IMG/VR virus record: IMGVR_UViG_3300029812_000326
Location: 32,001 to 96,000 of that record
DNA length: 64,000 bases
Reading direction: 5' to 3' (one strand)
Source: a virus
The number at the start of each line of letters is the position of its first letter. Position 1 is the stretch's first letter. Under the pieces are notes generated by a model. That model worked only from the letters and a program-made list of their open reading frames with translations. It was not told the DNA's origin and made no database searches. A program made the translations under genes and the position numbers. This document shows positions 50,881-57,224 of the stretch, piece by piece.

Positions 50881-51276
50881 ATGGGAACCCATCCTGTATC
50901 TTTTAATCAATTAACTATTGCCATAGAAATAATAGAAAAGAATCTTGAAGCTTTGACATTAACTGTTACTAATATGGTTCAACATATTTCCACGGGTATT
51001 CCTTCAAAACGCGATTTAGATAGAATTCGTCAAGAAATAGTGTTGATGAAAGAATCCGGAGATTATTCTGGAAATCAAATTGGAAATATCAATGATGCAG
51101 ATTTGCGAGCAATGTTAGAACTGAAACCTACATTGGATAATCTTATTGCTATGATGGAATCTTTTGATGATTGGAAAACATCTACAAATAGTACTATAAA
51201 TCAAATTAGTAGCCAATTGCAAGCAGTTCAATTACAATTATCGGCATTGGAAAGAAGAGTAGTAGCATTGGAGTAA
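50881..51276 (+). CDS. Coiled-coil protein (fibre-associated?)
   Basis: Heptad C-term ISSQLQAVQLQLSALERRVVALE; AAGGAG SD. Confidence 0.5.
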   Translation: MGTHPVSFNQLTIAIEIIEKNLEALTLTVTNMVQHISTGIPSKRDLDRIRQEIVLMKESGDYSGNQIGNINDADLRAMLELKPTLDNLIAMMESFDDWKTSTNSTINQISSQLQAVQLQLSALERRVVALE

Positions 51277-51279
51277 TAT

Positions 51280-51666
51280 ATGAGCGGCTATAAAAAAGCT
51301 TCATATGTAAAAGGTCCACTTCGGCGCATTTCTAGCTTTTTGTTTGTAAGAAAAAATGGATCTATTGATGTTAATGTATTGGCATTAGGTAGTGTAAAAT
51401 CTACTGTGATTGAATTCACTACTAATGAATCTGTCAAGTTGCCTGGGGTAGCTTATCCAAAACGCAAATCATTAACATTATGTCCTATTATTGATTCTTC
51501 CGGAATGTTTTATATTGGTGGTTCTGATGTTACAGTTGATAATGGATTACCATTAAGTTCTTTGGAATATTATTCTATAGATATTGGTGAAAATGCTGAT
51601 TTATGGGGTGTTGCCGATACGTCGGGTGAAGTGAGAATTTTAGAACTTGCTGAATATGATAATTAA
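51280..51666 (+). CDS. Small beta-sandwich virion protein
   Basis: RKSL....[12 protein letters not shown]...VRILELA pattern. Confidence 0.5.
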
Positions 51667-51686
51667 TTTATTTCAAAGAAGATATT

Positions 51687-52997
51687 ATGTCTAATCCAAT
51701 TATGCCAAGTAGTGGTGGAGAATCGAAAGACAAAACTCCTCCAATAATTGGTGGAGATGAATGTGAACAAGGATCTACTTGTGATGTAGATACCACACCT
51801 CCAGTTATATCTCCTCCTTCTTGTGGATGGGGGGTTGCTGGAGCCCGAGGGTATCCAGGATTGCCAGGACCGCAAGGTCCACAAGGAGAGCAAGGAATTC
51901 CTGGGATCAGTGGTGAACCCGGGGAAGCTGGACTTCAAGGAGATCCTGGTATGAGCGGTGAACCGGGAGAGCAAGGCCCACAGGGACCAGAAGGCCCAGA
52001 AGGCCCAGAGGGGCCTCCAGGATCAGGAGGATGGCAGACTTTAGATGATATTTGCGCGGTTGGAAATGAAACAGATTATGATATTCATACATCTGGGGAT
52101 TTGATTGTAGACCATTCGGGAATGTTTGGGAAAGATATATTTCTTAATTGGGATGGACCAGATGATGATAGTTATTTATATTTTTATGACGGAGCATCTC
52201 CTACTGGGCGACATTTAAAATGGAACAATGCGTCCAGTAGATTTGAATTTAATGAAGATGTCCGTTGTGCAGAATTAGAGGGCGGGAAAAATATTCATAT
52301 AAATATCTATCATAATGATGTTGACGCAGTCATGCATTTTTATAAACCCGGTGCAGGATATGAATTTTTTAAATGGGATAAAACTAATAATAAATTTGTT
52401 CTTAGTGATAAAATAGAAATCGGCGGAAATACAACTGTTTTGGGGAGTATTTATGGACATTCAAATATTGTGGCTTATGGAGATTTATTAGTTAATTATG
52501 ATTATGGAGATGTCGATGCGCAAATAAGATTTTTCAAATCCGATTCAAACGAAGAATATCTTAAATGGAATAAAACCCACAATTGGTTTGAATTCTCAGA
52601 TGATCTCCATGTGGGCGGCGGAATATCTGGTTCTTTCTTTATAATAGGGGATCTTGCACTTCCTGGTAGTCCAGTTGAAGGAACTATAGCATATGATTCA
52701 ACTTCTGGGGAATTCTTCGGATGGGATGGGAGTGTATGGGATCCATTTAGTGGTGAAGTTGGAATAAGTGGAGAGCCTGGACAACAGGGAATATCAGGAG
52801 AACCGGGAGAACAAGGATCTCCAGGAGATATCAGTCAAGCAACTTTAGATTTCGTATGTGATAATTCGAATGAAACAGATCAGGATATTCACACATCGGG
52901 AGATTTGATTGCAGATGAAACTCTCGAAGCCAGAAGAATTGAATTGAATAAAAATATGAATTACGAAGACGTTGTTATTTATTTTTACTTTCCCTAA
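51687..52997 (+). CDS. Collagen-like tail fibre, segment A
   Basis: 21 GXY triplets (51831-52019) plus 8 more (52752-52823); TLDxxC..ET..DIH.SG modules; ends mid-repeat (VVIYFYFP). Confidence 0.8.
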
Positions 52998-53019
52998 TCC
53001 ATAATGGAGGAAATATTGA

Positions 53020-53565
53020 ATGGGTAGAAAATTACTTAATTTAACTGGGCAAAGATTTGGAAGATTAATTGTTTTAAAATTTGCTGGTAGGAATAAATTT
53101 AGTCAAACCCGCTGGCTATGTAAATGTGATTGTGGAATGGAAAACATTGTTTCCAGTGTGAATTTAAGAAATGGAAATACAAAAAGTTGTGGATGCTTGA
53201 GGAACGAAACTGCATCTCAAACATGTAAGAAACGCTTGGAATCTAATCATCCTCGATGGAAAGGCTTTACATACGATAGTAATGGATATGTTTTAATTCA
53301 TCTTGGAAGAAAAAAATATATACGTGAGCATATTCTTGTAATGGAACAACATTTAGGAAGAAAATTATTAAAAGATGAAAATATTCATCATAAGAACGGA
53401 ATCAGGGATGATAACCATTTGGAGAATTTGGAATTATGGACACATGCCCATCCTTGTGGTCAAAGAGTTTCAGATATGATTAAATTCTGTGAAGAATATT
53501 TAATTCAATATAATCCGTCTAGAATAAAAAAATTAAAGTATAATGATTTAATCAATTATAACTAA
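53020..53565 (+). CDS. HNH_3-type homing endonuclease with DLTGQRFG/CxCxCG/KSCGC N-terminal domain
   Basis: NLTGQRFGRL, WLCKCDCG, TKSCGC, EH.LVME..LGR.L..E.IHHKNGIRDDNHLENL. Confidence 0.9.
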   Translation: MGRKLLNLTGQRFGRLIVLKFAGRNKFSQTRWLCKCDCGMENIVSSVNLRNGNTKSCGCLRNETASQTCKKRLESNHPRWKGFTYDSNGYVLIHLGRKKYIREHILVMEQHLGRKLLKDENIHHKNGIRDDNHLENLELWTHAHPCGQRVSDMIKFCEEYLIQYNPSRIKKLKYNDLINYN

Positions 53566-53585
53566 GAGAAAGGAGGTGAAATCGC

Positions 53586-54119
53586 TTGAGTTTCACTACA
53601 TTTAAATACAGCGTTGCTCGAGGTCGGTTTGAATTCACGGCTCCAGCTCAGATTTCAGGAGAATTATATGTTGATGGCTCTGGAATGTTCGAAGATGATA
53701 TTTATTTACATTATAAGGGTCCAGATGGAGATCAATATATATTCTTCTATGATGATAGTGCGCCTGATAACGAATGGCTGAAATGGGACGAAGCGGATGA
53801 TCGTTTTGAATTCAGCAATGATCTTTATGTCGAAGGTGCTGGACTCATTTCAGAAATATCCGGACATGCATATGCTGCTGAAGGCGATACATTGGATGTT
53901 GTATGCGGCAGAGGGCATGAAACGCAATATGATATCCATAGTTCTGGAACGATTACCGCCGATGTAGATCTGGATGCTGGAGTGGACGTGAATGCCGGCG
54001 GTGATATAAATGCTGGTGCGGATGTGACTGCAGGTGGAGATGCAAAAATCGATGGAAATGTCCATGTCAATTTTGATGCAGGTGCCGGCGATCCAACGGT
54101 TTTCTTTTATTATTCCTGA
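53586..54119 (+). CDS. Tail fibre segment B
   Basis: TTG start with AAGGAGGTGA SD; starts and ends mid-repeat. Confidence 0.75.
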   Translation: MSFTTFKYSVARGRFEFTAPAQISGELYVDGSGMFEDDIYLHYKGPDGDQYIFFYDDSAPDNEWLKWDEADDRFEFSNDLYVEGAGLISEISGHAYAAEGDTLDVVCGRGHETQYDIHSSGTITADVDLDAGVDVNAGGDINAGADVTAGGDAKIDGNVHVNFDAGAGDPTVFFYYS

Positions 54120-54120
54120 T

Positions 54121-54150
54121 TAAGAATAGCAAATGGGACTTGCTTTCTTA
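54121..54150 (+). promoter_or_regulatory. Hairpin TAAGAA(T)AGCAA-loop-TTGCTTTCTTA followed by a T-rich tract
   Basis: 11-bp inverted repeat right after the segment B stop. Confidence 0.45.
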
Positions 54151-54168
54151 TTCTTTTCTGGAGGAAAT

Positions 54169-54270
54169 ATGTTTGAATATTTTAAATGGTCTAGGAAATT
54201 TGATTGTTGTATTGAATATGGAACCGTAGAAAGACCGTATTATGCTAAAGGATTTGGAGCGATAAAATGA
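54169..54270 (+). pseudogene. 33-aa remnant of KWSxKY HNH N-terminus (MFEYFKWSRKFDCCIEYGTVERPYYAKG)
   Basis: Aligns with KWSQKYGDCCIECGTTEIPHKGHG; GGAGG SD; TGA overlaps next ATG. Confidence 0.75.
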
Positions 54271-55940
54271 GTTTGGAATATCTGAAATTTAACATTTCTA
54301 ATGACAGATTTGAATTCAGTGATGATATACATATTTCTGGATGCGGATCTTTCTGTGAATTATCTGGGTCTTACTATGGATTATCTGGAGATTATATCTC
54401 TCATCGTGATGATACATCTAATCCTCACGAAGTAACATTTGATCAAGCCAGAGATCAACAGGGAGGCTCTGACGTAACATTGGCAGAACTTGAAGAATTG
54501 ACCGATGGCTCTGTAACTGTATTGCATGCTCATGCTGGCGGCGGAGCAGATACTTTGGATAATGTTTGTGATCGGGGAAATGAGACAAACCAAGATATAC
54601 ATAGCTCGGGCACGGTGTATGCTGATCGTTCCCTAATGACCGATGGTGATGTAGAAATCGCCGATGATTTGAATGTTGGTGATGATGCATCCATATCGGG
54701 CGATTTACATGTTGTGGGCACTTTCTATACGGATGGTGAAATTCATGCTGGTAATTCTATTTTTGCGACAGGCGATTTAAAAGCAACTAATAATCTTTAT
54801 TTAAATAGCAATAATGATAATCAAGATGCTGTTGTTCATTTTTACAAACCCACTGCAGGCGAAGAAACTCTGAGATGGGATAAAACAGATCTTCGTTTTG
54901 AATTTAGTGATGATTTACAAGTTCAAGGCAAATTATTAGTTGATAATTCAGGAACATTTGAAACGGGATTATTTTCAAAAGATGATGTTTATTTTTCTCG
55001 CGATCTTTACATTGAAGAGGATATTCTCTGTGAATGGGATGCTTATATAAAAAGTTTAATTCTTAATAAAAACTTTCACAATACTACTGCGCAAATTATT
55101 TTCAGAAAACCTACTTCTGGATTTGAATCTTTAACATGGAATAAAGGTACAAATAGATTTTTATTGAGTAATGATTTACAAATTCAAGGTGATCTTTATA
55201 TAGATGAATCCGGAACATTCGGCGATCAAGTAGTAGTTGACGCATCAGGAATTTATTATGAAGCGAATGATCAACATACTCACATATCTGATTTCCTTGC
55301 TGGATTGCCTGGGCTTATGTTTAATACATCATCGGAGAAGTGGCAATATTGTAATGATGGCTCTACTTGGGCGGATATTGGGAGTGGTGGTGCCGGTGCT
55401 GGAAGCATACTTCTTCCTGTTGAAGGCGCCGCTCTTGGTGATGGAACAGTTGGTTCAGCTGCGCCGGCTCTAAGTCTTGTTACAACTTCGGATGCCGATG
55501 ATCCTCAGTGCAGAACATTTTGCCTACGATTTGATGCCAGCACGGATGAACATTGCTTCTGGCAATTCCGACTACCTGCTGATTATAGTTCTGGCGGAAG
55601 ACTTAAAGTTCAATTTTATAATGTTAGTGCTCAATTAAATGATATAAAAACTGCACAATTTGAAGGATGTCTCCAAGCTGTAACTCCTGGTGATGCAACA
55701 ATTATGACTGCTCTTGATCTGACAACGGATGGTGGTGGTTGGGTTGGAACACTTAAGACCTTGACATCGGGCACAACAGCTGGAAGATTATATGAATCAT
55801 CTATTGATATGGCTTCCAATCTCGATGGAATGGTTGCTGGAGATTTTATACAATTTGGATTAAGAAGAGATGTTAGTGATGACGATGCTACAGGAGATAT
55901 GGCAGTGATTGCAGTAACATTCGAATATAACTATGCATAA
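54267..55940 (+). CDS. Tail fibre segment C with C-terminal jelly-roll-like tip domain
   Basis: Starts mid-repeat (LEYLKFN...RFEFSDD); same repeats as A and B; C-term F.LP.DY..G...GD.I....RD domain. Confidence 0.75.
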   Translation: MSLEYLKFNISNDRFEFSDDIHISGCGSFCELSGSYYGLSGDYISHRDDTSNPHEVTFDQARDQQGGSDVTLAELEELTDGSVTVLHAHAGGGADTLDNVCDRGNETNQDIHSSGTVYADRSLMTDGDVEIADDLNVGDDASISGDLHVVGTFYTDGEIHAGNSIFATGDLKATNNLYLNSNNDNQDAVVHFYKPTAGEETLRWDKTDLRFEFSDDLQVQGKLLVDNSGTFETGLFSKDDVYFSRDLYIEEDILCEWDAYIKSLILNKNFHNTTAQIIFRKPTSGFESLTWNKGTNRFLLSNDLQIQGDLYIDESGTFGDQVVVDASGIYYEANDQHTHISDFLAGLPGLMFNTSSEKWQYCNDGSTWADIGSGGAGAGSILLPVEGAALGDGTVGSAAPALSLVTTSDADDPQCRTFCLRFDASTDEHCFWQFRLPADYSSGGRLKVQFYNVSAQLNDIKTAQFEGCLQAVTPGDATIMTALDLTTDGGGWVGTLKTLTSGTTAGRLYESSIDMASNLDGMVAGDFIQFGLRRDVSDDDATGDMAVIAVTFEYNYA

Positions 55941-55967
55941 ACAATGGCTATTTGAATAGGAAAATCT

Positions 55968-56654
55968 ATGAGTATAGAATTTACAAATGCAGCTTCAAAA
56001 TATGCGTGGGTTGATAGAACACCATTTGAAATAAATGGACCTTTGACTGTGTCTCTTTGGCTTTACGTAAAAACTCTTACGGCCTGGAATGGAATTTATA
56101 CTATGGGACTAAATTCAGGTATAAATCTCTTTATGACAGATGGTATTAAATTGCGATCATTTGTAAGAGAAAAAACACCCATTCGATGGCAATTCAATGA
56201 TTCAACAAATAATATTAATGCAAATCAATGGTATCACGTTTGCCAAGTTGTAACAGCAGATAATATGCATCTTTATATAGATGGAGTTGATCAAGAAGCA
56301 ATCAGTCCTGGAGGATATGGAGGGGATATAAATTATCCAGATGTTTATGATTGGCGCATCAGTGGATATAATGATCAAGAATTTGATGGTATGATAGAAG
56401 ATTTAGCTTATTGGAATAAGGAGCTTAGTATAGCACAAATTCTTTTATTGGCTAAATCTTATAAGAAAAGAATACCATTACAAATTCAACCTGCTAATTT
56501 GATGCTTTATCTTCCATTTGATGAAGCAAATATTGGAGCTGCATATGGAACAGCGTATGATTGGAGTGGTAATGGACGGAATGCAACACCAAGCGGTCCT
56601 CCAATAGGAGCAAAAGGAATTTTATCTTATCCGTCAAAGATCGTTATGGTATAA
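55968..56654 (+). CDS. LamG/concanavalin A-like lectin domain protein
   Basis: TVSLW, NQWYHV, LYIDG, FDGMIEDLAYWNKELS, YLPFDE, DWSGNGRNAT. Confidence 0.85.
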   Translation: MSIEFTNAASKYAWVDRTPFEINGPLTVSLWLYVKTLTAWNGIYTMGLNSGINLFMTDGIKLRSFVREKTPIRWQFNDSTNNINANQWYHVCQVVTADNMHLYIDGVDQEAISPGGYGGDINYPDVYDWRISGYNDQEFDGMIEDLAYWNKELSIAQILLLAKSYKKRIPLQIQPANLMLYLPFDEANIGAAYGTAYDWSGNGRNATPSGPPIGAKGILSYPSKIVMV

Positions 56655-56657
56655 AAT

Positions 56658-57224
56658 ATGATTGATCATATTGTAGGCATAGATGAAGTTGGAAGAGGCT
56701 GTTTAGCCGGTCCAGTCGTTGCATGTGCAATTATGACCAACTATTCTGCAATTCCCCTATGTTGTCGGGATTCTAAGAAATTTACTGAAACCCGCAGGAA
56801 ATTCGTGGCCCGCATATGTCTTCCCTACGTAAATAAAATAGCATTTGGAACGATTTCAAATGAAATTATAGATGAATTTGGCATTAAAAATGCTACGAAG
56901 TTAGCTATGACCAGAGCATATGAAAAACTTAATCCCAATCATGATATTGTATACATCGATGGCATAGATGGAATAGGAATCAAAGATGAAATTGTTGTGC
57001 CTCATGGAGATGACCTAATTCCCTGGATATCATTGGCTTCCATATATGGCAAAATCTATAGAGATTTCATAATGATTCAGTATTCTGAGATGGAAGAATA
57101 CAAAATGTACAATTTGGATAGGAACAAAGGCTATCTTACGCATGAGCACAAAGTGGCGATTGATAGGTACGGATTGTCGAATATTCACCGACAATCATTC
57201 AGTTGGGAGAATTCTTGGAAATAA
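56658..57224 (+). CDS. rnhB: Ribonuclease HII
   Basis: GIDEVGRGCLAGPV, DSKK, IDG, ISLASI.GK..RD, KGY...H, IHRQSF. Confidence 0.95.
   Translation: MIDHIVGIDEVGRGCLAGPVVACAIMTNYSAIPLCCRDSKKFTETRRKFVARICLPYVNKIAFGTISNEIIDEFGIKNATKLAMTRAYEKLNPNHDIVYIDGIDGIGIKDEIVVPHGDDLIPWISLASIYGKIYRDFIMIQYSEMEEYKMYNLDRNKGYLTHEHKVAIDRYGLSNIHRQSFSWENSWK

Follow-up and report, generated by a model that had tools for sequence, protein, structure and literature searches.

In chaperone-usher pili (Fim/Pap), a subunit whose beta unit is incomplete receives the missing strand from its neighbour, which gives rise to ordered head-to-tail chains. Modular receptor-binding proteins, such as the T7-like gp17 anchors and the branched tailspike systems, place variable distal domains on a conserved N-terminal anchor, and their tips are exchanged. 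Here, we analyse a locus of a large phage where three adjacent genes of fibrous proteins, which we call A, B and C, meet at two joints (A|B, hereafter J1, and B|C, hereafter J2), each of which cuts a protein repeat within the same loop. The first gap holds a free-standing HNH endonuclease gene. The locus occupies positions 51687 to 55940 (+ strand) of the window, i.e. the whole stretch of 64,000 nucleotides (nt) under study, which corresponds to bases 32001-96000 of the 108,870-base IMG/VR virus record IMGVR_UViG_3300029812_000326. The original prediction for this DNA saw in it a modular fibre with swappable tips, whose pieces would complete each other's half repeat, and cited as a precedent the nrdA gene of phage Aeh1, which is split by an HNH gene.

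The long tail fibre of phage T4 is the nearest functional parallel, because there separate gene products join end to end. Its proteins gp34-gp35-gp36-gp37 are, like those of our locus, products of adjacent genes, and the distal one carries the receptor-binding tip. The gp36 trimer attaches to the N-terminal part of gp37 (PMC3004832). Yet, we obtained no sequence or fold match to T4 proteins for A, B or C. Furthermore, each joint of our locus, unlike those of T4, bisects a repeat at the same loop and the partners carry complementary halves. To our knowledge, a joint bisecting a sequence repeat has not been reported for the T4 fibre. As for the donor-strand complementation of pili, it is a "works like" analogy only for the docking that we propose: neither the fold nor the organism nor the assembly machinery is related, and here a homotrimer is predicted at each level, with the upstream C-terminus as the donor. 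T7-like anchors resemble our locus in having a conserved N-terminal adaptor on variable distal domains, but the adaptor in our locus is half of a shaft repeat and recurs at two successive joints. Full-text searches of the literature yielded no account of tail-fibre proteins that complement each other's strands.

The locus also recalls genes in pieces. In Aeh1, insertion of the HNH gene mobE made the split in nrdA and supplied the new tails needed for assembly (PMC3045599). Both there and here a free-standing HNH gene lies between separately translated pieces that read as one protein, and the Aeh1 pieces are thought to reassemble. Unlike in Aeh1, relatives of our locus that are free of the HNH gene are split at the same points, the pieces have no extra tails and the HNH gene looks like a later occupant. 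Fractured genes encode split inteins and have an endonuclease gene between the pieces (PMC2677866). They share with our locus a gene in pieces and a free-standing endonuclease gene in the gap, but we found no intein halves and no Hint domain, and the protein ends stop inside the repeat.

Results

Both gene boundaries fall in the same loop of a repeat

Segment A (51687..52997, +, 436 amino acids) has an N-terminal region, two collagen-like stretches, three intact repeats (profile matches at residues 149-193, 201-243 and 263-308) and, at its C-terminus, the first half of a further repeat (..VVIYFYFP-stop; 52938..52994, +; half match at residues 418-434). The collagen-like stretches (PF01391, E value 1e-13) imply a trimeric fibre, and the same part of the protein matches several PHROG tail-fibre families. 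Segment B (53586..54119, +, 177 amino acids) begins with the second half of a repeat (MSFTTFKY..RFEF; MSFTTFKYSVARGRFEFTAP, 53586..53645, +), continues with one intact repeat, a GxETxxDIH motif and a short beta-helix-like stretch, and ends with a first half (..PTVFFYYS-stop; ..DGNVHVNFDAGAGDPTVFFYYS, 54051..54116, +). Segment C (54267..55940, +, 557 amino acids) starts again with a second half (MSLEYLKF..RFEF; MSLEYLKFNISNDRFEFSDDIH, 54267..54332, +), which carries a conserved SGCGSFCELSG adaptor, and has two intact repeats as well as a tip domain at its C-terminus. In B and C, no Pfam or PHROG match lies above threshold. The tip domain of C is common to the family proteins P0002, P0003 and P0006 (44-48% identity to P0002 and P0003), and P0002 and P0006 also bear the tail-fibre family phrog_5668.

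B and C have translation signals of their own. A GGAGG ribosome-binding site (53572..53576, +) stands 9 nt before the TTG start of B, and an in-frame TGA at 53577 makes the TTG at 53586 its sole possible start. C starts with an ATG, and its GGAG lies 7 nt ahead of it.

To place the cuts within the repeat we used a profile of 47 positions, seeded with intact copies and refined on the family proteins with all split forms excluded. It converged on 565 intact copies from about 146 family proteins. The end of A occupies positions 5-21, i.e. only the first strand of the repeat, and the start of B positions 30-43; the end of B occupies positions 2-22 (19 bits) and the start of C positions 29-47 (27 bits). 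Both cuts thus fall inside one loop, at positions 22-29. When the halves are joined they give a full-length profile match with zero extra residues. For J2 this is one match over positions 2-47 scoring 49.7 bits, to be compared with an interquartile range of 44.8-66.7 bits among intact full-length copies. The open reading frames (ORFs) and the end sequences of the three pieces are as the original prediction described them, the separate Shine-Dalgarno sites and starts of B and C are confirmed, and the profile bears out its claim that both breaks share a loop.

The split is conserved in relatives that lack the HNH gene

We searched 1.84 billion cluster representatives with B and retrieved 273 family members (at the 50% cluster level), mostly long proteins with many intact repeats. 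The repeat family is widespread, has no Pfam model and no solved structure. A few small relatives are cut at both ends like B, namely P0012 (165 amino acids, 88% identical) and P0046/P0158 (222 amino acids, with a different middle), and these start M.FTTFKYS..GRFEF and end DPTL[FY]F[NY]F[SP]. P0163 ends with GDPTIFFHFQ and has a different middle body. The homologues of C (P0005, P0159 and P0160) have the same 34 N-terminal amino acids, i.e. the half repeat plus the SGCGSFCELSG adaptor, and then different bodies. A search with the first 60 residues of C yielded the P0005 cluster only, which makes the adaptor rare in the data now available.

A scan of JGI metagenomes revealed two contigs, L008 and L009, with the same A|B|C layout. 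In both, the A-like gene ends ..DIEIIFYFP-stop and is followed by a spacer of 33 nt; B has 177 amino acids and a GTG start preceded by AAGGAG, and is followed by a spacer of 42 nt; the C-type gene starts MSFEYFKWNILNNRFEF. There is no HNH gene anywhere on L008 or L009. By blastn, L008 and the window are 80-83% identical on both sides of each spacer. At the protein level identity is 84% for the end of A and 92% for B. Silent-site divergence (dS) between the window and L008 is saturated (1.2-1.5, with 1.5 for B), and omega is 0.07 for the end of A, 0.03 for B and 0.16 for the start of C, half-repeat ends included. By these ratios all three pieces are under purifying selection. The saturated dS, the low omega and the split relatives devoid of an HNH gene together indicate that the split is old and conserved, and that the present HNH gene is not its maker.

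The C-type adaptor heads three different tips, those of window C, of L008 (1197 amino acids) and of L009 (394 amino acids). Only the first 34-37 residues of window C match the L008 tip in place, and the other modules that they share are placed elsewhere in the L008 protein. Over A, B and the beginning of the tip gene, L008 matches L009 at 99.3% identity. What sets the two contigs apart is an in-frame block of 2409 nt inside the tip gene (L008 1945-4412 vs L009 1945-2003). A pectate-lyase-like beta-helix forms part of this block, and a 59-nt repeat that encodes DTLDxVCDRG..TDQDI marks its borders. The difference suggests that the tip varies in length through recombination at the DTLDxVCDRG motif. 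The pattern expected of a modular fibre with swappable tips, as originally predicted, is thus what we see: the same ends stand on different middle cassettes (P0012, P0046, P0163) and on different tips.

Further searches added no close relatives. The phage database gave no match by megablast of the region or by tblastn of B and C. Scans of IMG/VR with A, with C and with alignments of the B-type and C-type proteins found no close relative, and only one distant repeat protein (L016). GTDB genomes contained no split relative, only distant repeat proteins in metagenome-assembled genomes (MAGs), and ESM Atlas returned only unnamed viral clusters.

Do the half repeats pair?

We think it somewhat probable that A, B and C, each translated separately, make up a single trimeric tail fibre and dock via their half repeats. 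A would be the proximal part, with its collagen-like stretches, B a short connector cassette and C the bearer of the distal tip. Each boundary would lie at the turn between the first and the second strand of a three-strand repeat of 47 residues, the upstream protein ending in an unpaired first strand and the downstream protein starting with the remaining hairpin. In head-to-tail docking the upstream strand would pair with the downstream hairpin, so that a whole repeat is restored over the joint. The conserved ends would serve as universal connectors that permit the exchange of middle cassettes and tips, and the HNH gene of the first spacer and the putative decayed insert of the second would be secondary invaders of intergenic joints, flanked by conserved and mutually similar sequence. 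We infer the pairing of the halves from the profile scores, from the conserved ends found on varied cassettes and tips, and from a comparison of single-chain AlphaFold models.

For these models, L008 1000-2100 was translated with table 6, so that its four TAA codons were read through. The product is a fused chain made, in order, of the end of A, 13 linker residues, B, 16 linker residues and the start of C, which was folded as an AlphaFold monomer with 59 family sequences. The intact repeat of B forms strands 135-141, 144-153 and 158-161. The same three-strand pattern is found at J1 (strands 66-71, 87-94 and 99-102) and at J2 (strands 256-260, 280-286 and 291-294, with pLDDT 87-93). When window B is folded alone, the N-terminal hairpin (E6-9/E14-17) and the intact repeat are kept and there is no strand in the C-terminal half repeat. 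This strand pattern is the one expected if the last strand of B needs the hairpin of C.

Several observations weigh against docking by half repeats, and the models have limits. The mean pLDDT of the fused chain is 60, with a shallow and untidy alignment, and its confident parts are the repeats. The models that we compare are of different proteins, the fused chain of L008 and the lone B of the window (92% identical), made with separate alignments. Strand partners at the joints are inferred from a single fused chain with no readable contacts, which is not a trimer. The joined end of A and start of B score only 14.5-15.9 bits, which makes J1 a weak, degenerate copy of the repeat in an unchanged register. 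The end of A scores higher with the start of C (36 bits) than with the start of B, so that the profile leaves the order of the pieces unexplained. In other family proteins, second-half-like motifs (..RFEF.., ..R.FTG..) stand directly after unrelated domains with no preceding first half; the N-terminal half may hence need no partner strand. Finally, the split form is known from a handful of contigs only. Solved structures, among them fibre folds such as T4 gp34/gp37, T7 gp17 and the triple beta-helix, were searched with both AlphaFold models. The best match of Foldseek has an E value of 0.21, which is not significant, and neither is the best Z of 3.3 given by VIA-align; several of the weak rows are spikes or fibres of phages or of secretion systems, but the top row of both fold searches is not. 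Sequence searches of PDB returned collagen matches only, none of them to the repeat.

One might therefore regard A, B and C as proteins of the fibre apparatus whose half repeats stay unpaired, their boundaries being the borders of recombination modules and any docking being done by other surfaces or by other virion proteins. The second-half motifs that lack a first half fit this explanation, as do the poor profile fit of the J1 halves and the failure of the scores to predict the observed order. Mosaic exchange at the DTLDxVCDxG motif takes place inside genes as well. Nevertheless, we find the explanation unlikely. It is at odds with the position of both boundaries in the same 7-residue loop and with the strong purifying selection on the ends. 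B has no other recognisable attachment domain. In the 157 family proteins inspected, lone first strands at a protein end are confined to the split group. Last, AlphaFold places a strand at the end of B only when the start of C is present.

The spacers and the origin of the split

Spacer 1 (52998..53585, +) has 588 nt and is filled by an HNH cassette, where L008 has 33 nt. In the blastn alignment of L008 with the window, homology ends at 53000 and restarts at 53591, so that 53001-53590 is an insertion. It contains the free-standing HNH endonuclease gene (53020..53565, +, 181 amino acids), identified by PF13392 HNH_3 (E 1.3e-8, above the curated cut-off) and by phrog_20891 (E 1e-24). The gene is present at this site in the window and absent from it in L008 and L009. 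It is single-copy in the virus genome (G000), and its relatives are scattered over unrelated phages, as expected of a mobile gene. Its flanks inside the spacer are only 22 and 20 nt long, and cmscan against Rfam (E<=1) found no intron family in 51000-57000; the earlier claim that the spacers leave no room for a ribozyme stands.

Spacer 2 (54120..54266, +) has 147 nt, for 42 nt in L008. It consists of a hairpin, a relic ribosome-binding site with codons, inserted DNA, and the new GGAG and ATG of C. The relic (54159-54189) corresponds to a ribosome-binding site as in L008 together with the seven initial codons of a C-type gene, with 83% identity to L008 1820-1854. It is followed by about 65-100 nt that are not in L008 and then by a second start region, which heads the actual C gene. 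Against the HNH gene, the insert gives three collinear tblastx pieces (including 26 amino acids at 42% and 15 amino acids at 47% identity; sum E 0.004, in a small search space). The 45-codon ORF at 54133-54270 has no Pfam match at E<=0.1, and its sole PHROG match is phrog_6351 (unknown function, E 0.019), which is not an HNH family. The original prediction placed an HNH gene or an HNH remnant in the spacers: this is true of the gene in spacer 1, and the tblastx pieces weakly support a decayed endonuclease insert in spacer 2. The left edges of the two window spacers have 27 nt in common at 74% identity, including GGAGGAAATAT.

In the window all three pieces lie in a single reading frame (offsets of 1899 and 2580 nt), a point absent from the original prediction, and they do so in L008 too (1, 1255, 1819/1831). 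The lengths of the four spacers (588, 147, 33 and 42 nt) are all multiples of three, with a chance of about 1 in 81 if they are independent, and so are the inserts in the window (555 and 105 nt). The common frame in both genomes may be the trace of an in-place origin from a continuous gene. Three histories are candidates: two repeat copies were cut by an ancient endonuclease whose target lay within the repeat; one split occurred and a joint-to-joint cassette was then duplicated; or stop and start signals arose in place within the loop. Only a recent cut by the present HNH gene is excluded. The cause implied by the original prediction, an insertion of the Aeh1 nrdA/mobE type, is not supported, given that L008 and L009 are cut at the same places without the gene, with spacers of 33 and 42 nt and saturated dS. 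The search for unsplit homologues that it recommended found no close one among the 273 family representatives, and the two HNH-free contigs are split at the same points.

A more elaborate scenario starts from the first of these histories. A homing endonuclease with its target in the repeat DNA would have split a continuous gene at two copies of the repeat, the pieces would have stayed functional, and the element would later have been lost (L008) or have decayed (spacer 2). The intact HNH gene at J1 and the weak HNH remnant at J2 are in its favour, a sequence-specific target would explain the single register of both cuts, and the pieces are all in one frame in both genomes. The similarity of the left edges of the window spacers over 27 nt also agrees with it, and the J2 spacer of L008 retains ATGGGACGA (M-G-R), which resembles the HNH start MGR. 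Splitting of this kind has a precedent in Aeh1 nrdA/mobE (PMC3045599). Yet, we regard the scenario as doubtful. The HNH-free relatives are identically split, and their spacers are very short and tidy and contain Shine-Dalgarno sites. The split came before silent sites were saturated. Among the 273 family representatives we found no unsplit close homologue, hence no unsplit endonuclease-free relative of the kind known for Aeh1, and the protein ends are without insertion-derived tails of the NrdA-a/b kind. Free-standing endonuclease genes usually settle between genes, and one split with duplication of a cassette gives the same register too.

A hairpin follows the stop of B in both genomes (window 54121-54150, L008 1799-1817). 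The loop, ATGGGAC, is identical and the stems differ (AGCAA/TTGCT vs GAGATC/GATCTC). This loop contains an ATG, which in L008 opens a mini-ORF starting M-G-R, like the HNH start MGRK. In the RNA fold, an outer stem forms between the final codons of B and the ribosome-binding site that comes next. The hairpin and the stem fold no better than shuffled sequence (z of -1.1 and -1.3), and translational coupling through pairing of the end of the upstream gene with the next ribosome-binding site is a lead only. In L008, positions 1205-1220 and 1774-1789 hold an identical 16-mer, TTCTATTTTCCTTAAT, which comprises the final 13 nt of the A-like and of the B-like gene, including the TAA stop, plus the next base. 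This exceeds the need of the shared FYFP-stop; either gene conversion between joints or a conserved element in RNA or DNA could explain it.

It is very improbable that a single chain is made from the pieces after transcription, be it by splicing of RNA, a split intein, bypass or stop read-through. One could invoke for it the three pieces in frame in both genomes and the hairpin with the same loop on different stems. But Rfam models find no intron and the relatives' spacers are only 33-42 nt long; Pfam finds no intein or Hint domain in A, B and C, whose ends stop exactly inside the repeat. Each short spacer of L008 has two in-frame TAA codons, seven in-frame stops lie in spacer 2 of the window, and spacer 1 is occupied by an entire gene. 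There are no matching take-off and landing codons, and each piece has its own Shine-Dalgarno site and start. Translational bypass of the T4 gene 60 type was rejected: by eye, the L008 spacers have no CCN landing codon with an open continuation, and the window spacers measure 588 and 147 nt. Recoding of TAA in L008 is unlikely; long ORFs are open under table 11. Least credible of all is a decaying fibre gene in a defective prophage, suggested by the "provirus" tag of the IMG/VR record, its completeness of 53% and the relic sequence in spacer 2, and contradicted by omega values of 0.03-0.16 at saturated dS against an independent relative of the same layout and by three intact ORFs with starts and Shine-Dalgarno sites in both lineages.

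Genomic context

The locus has five reading frames (A, the HNH gene, B, the 45-codon ORF and C), and forms the end of a long + strand gene run where it closes the virion structural module. Upstream genes match PHROG families of virion structural, baseplate wedge and tail fibre proteins. A, B and C are thus adjacent fibrous-protein genes within a virion structural module, and the distal one has a tip domain. A LamG/concanavalin-like gene lies 3' of the tip gene (55968-56654; PF13385, E 1.3e-18), and also in L009 (3027-3218). Its product could be a conserved partner of the fibre, e.g. a chaperone or an accessory adhesin. A scan of the locus for promoters and terminators remained at background level.

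Three giant ORFs stand ahead of the structural module (3-22942), of 3325 (5' end open), 2015 and 2044 amino acids. Elsewhere in the same virus and outside the window, an open frame of 307 amino acids (G000:C1:21942-22346, locus L003) matches residues 95-223 of C with an E value of 1.5e-12. The match covers the GNETxQDIH motif and the beta-helix-like stretch, and a motif scan found no full repeat there; the frame may encode a second fibre-like protein. The repeat is also found on a contig of a Candidatus Peribacteria MAG (L014 5398-9565), in three tandem genes of proteins with signal peptides (..DIYLQFG....TL.FN..N.RFEFS.D.Y.NG). Hence, the repeat family is also present on contigs binned to candidate-phyla bacteria, where these proteins could be cell-surface proteins or products of prophage genes.

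Discussion

We showed that two successive boundaries between fibre genes fall within the same seven-residue loop of one repeat, and that this arrangement is kept under selection in relatives with other spacers and other tips. The locus is best classed as a variant of the multi-protein tail fibre, in which an ordinary homing endonuclease rides along as a secondary passenger. In this respect it offers a clean natural case where a homing endonuclease gene broke no gene but took up residence in an intergenic joint that already existed, and a useful caution in reading "genes in pieces".

One might go further and speculate, tentatively and with less assurance than we have in docking itself, that the locus encodes a fibre of exchangeable cassettes that snap together. 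Each joint would consist of a donor strand from the upstream trimer and an acceptor hairpin from the downstream trimer, and such a strand-complementation connector would be new for phage fibres. Adding or removing whole genes, or swapping them, would change the length and the tip of the fibre, and the genes may also be translationally coupled.

The conserved split in a single register leads to a specific and testable prediction on how the pieces of a fibre connect. If the half repeats dock, they would provide a simple and portable connector for trimeric fibres. This would explain how connector cassettes and tips are swapped while the rest of the fibre is left undisturbed, and would offer phage engineers a defined seam at which to change the host range of laboratory phages.

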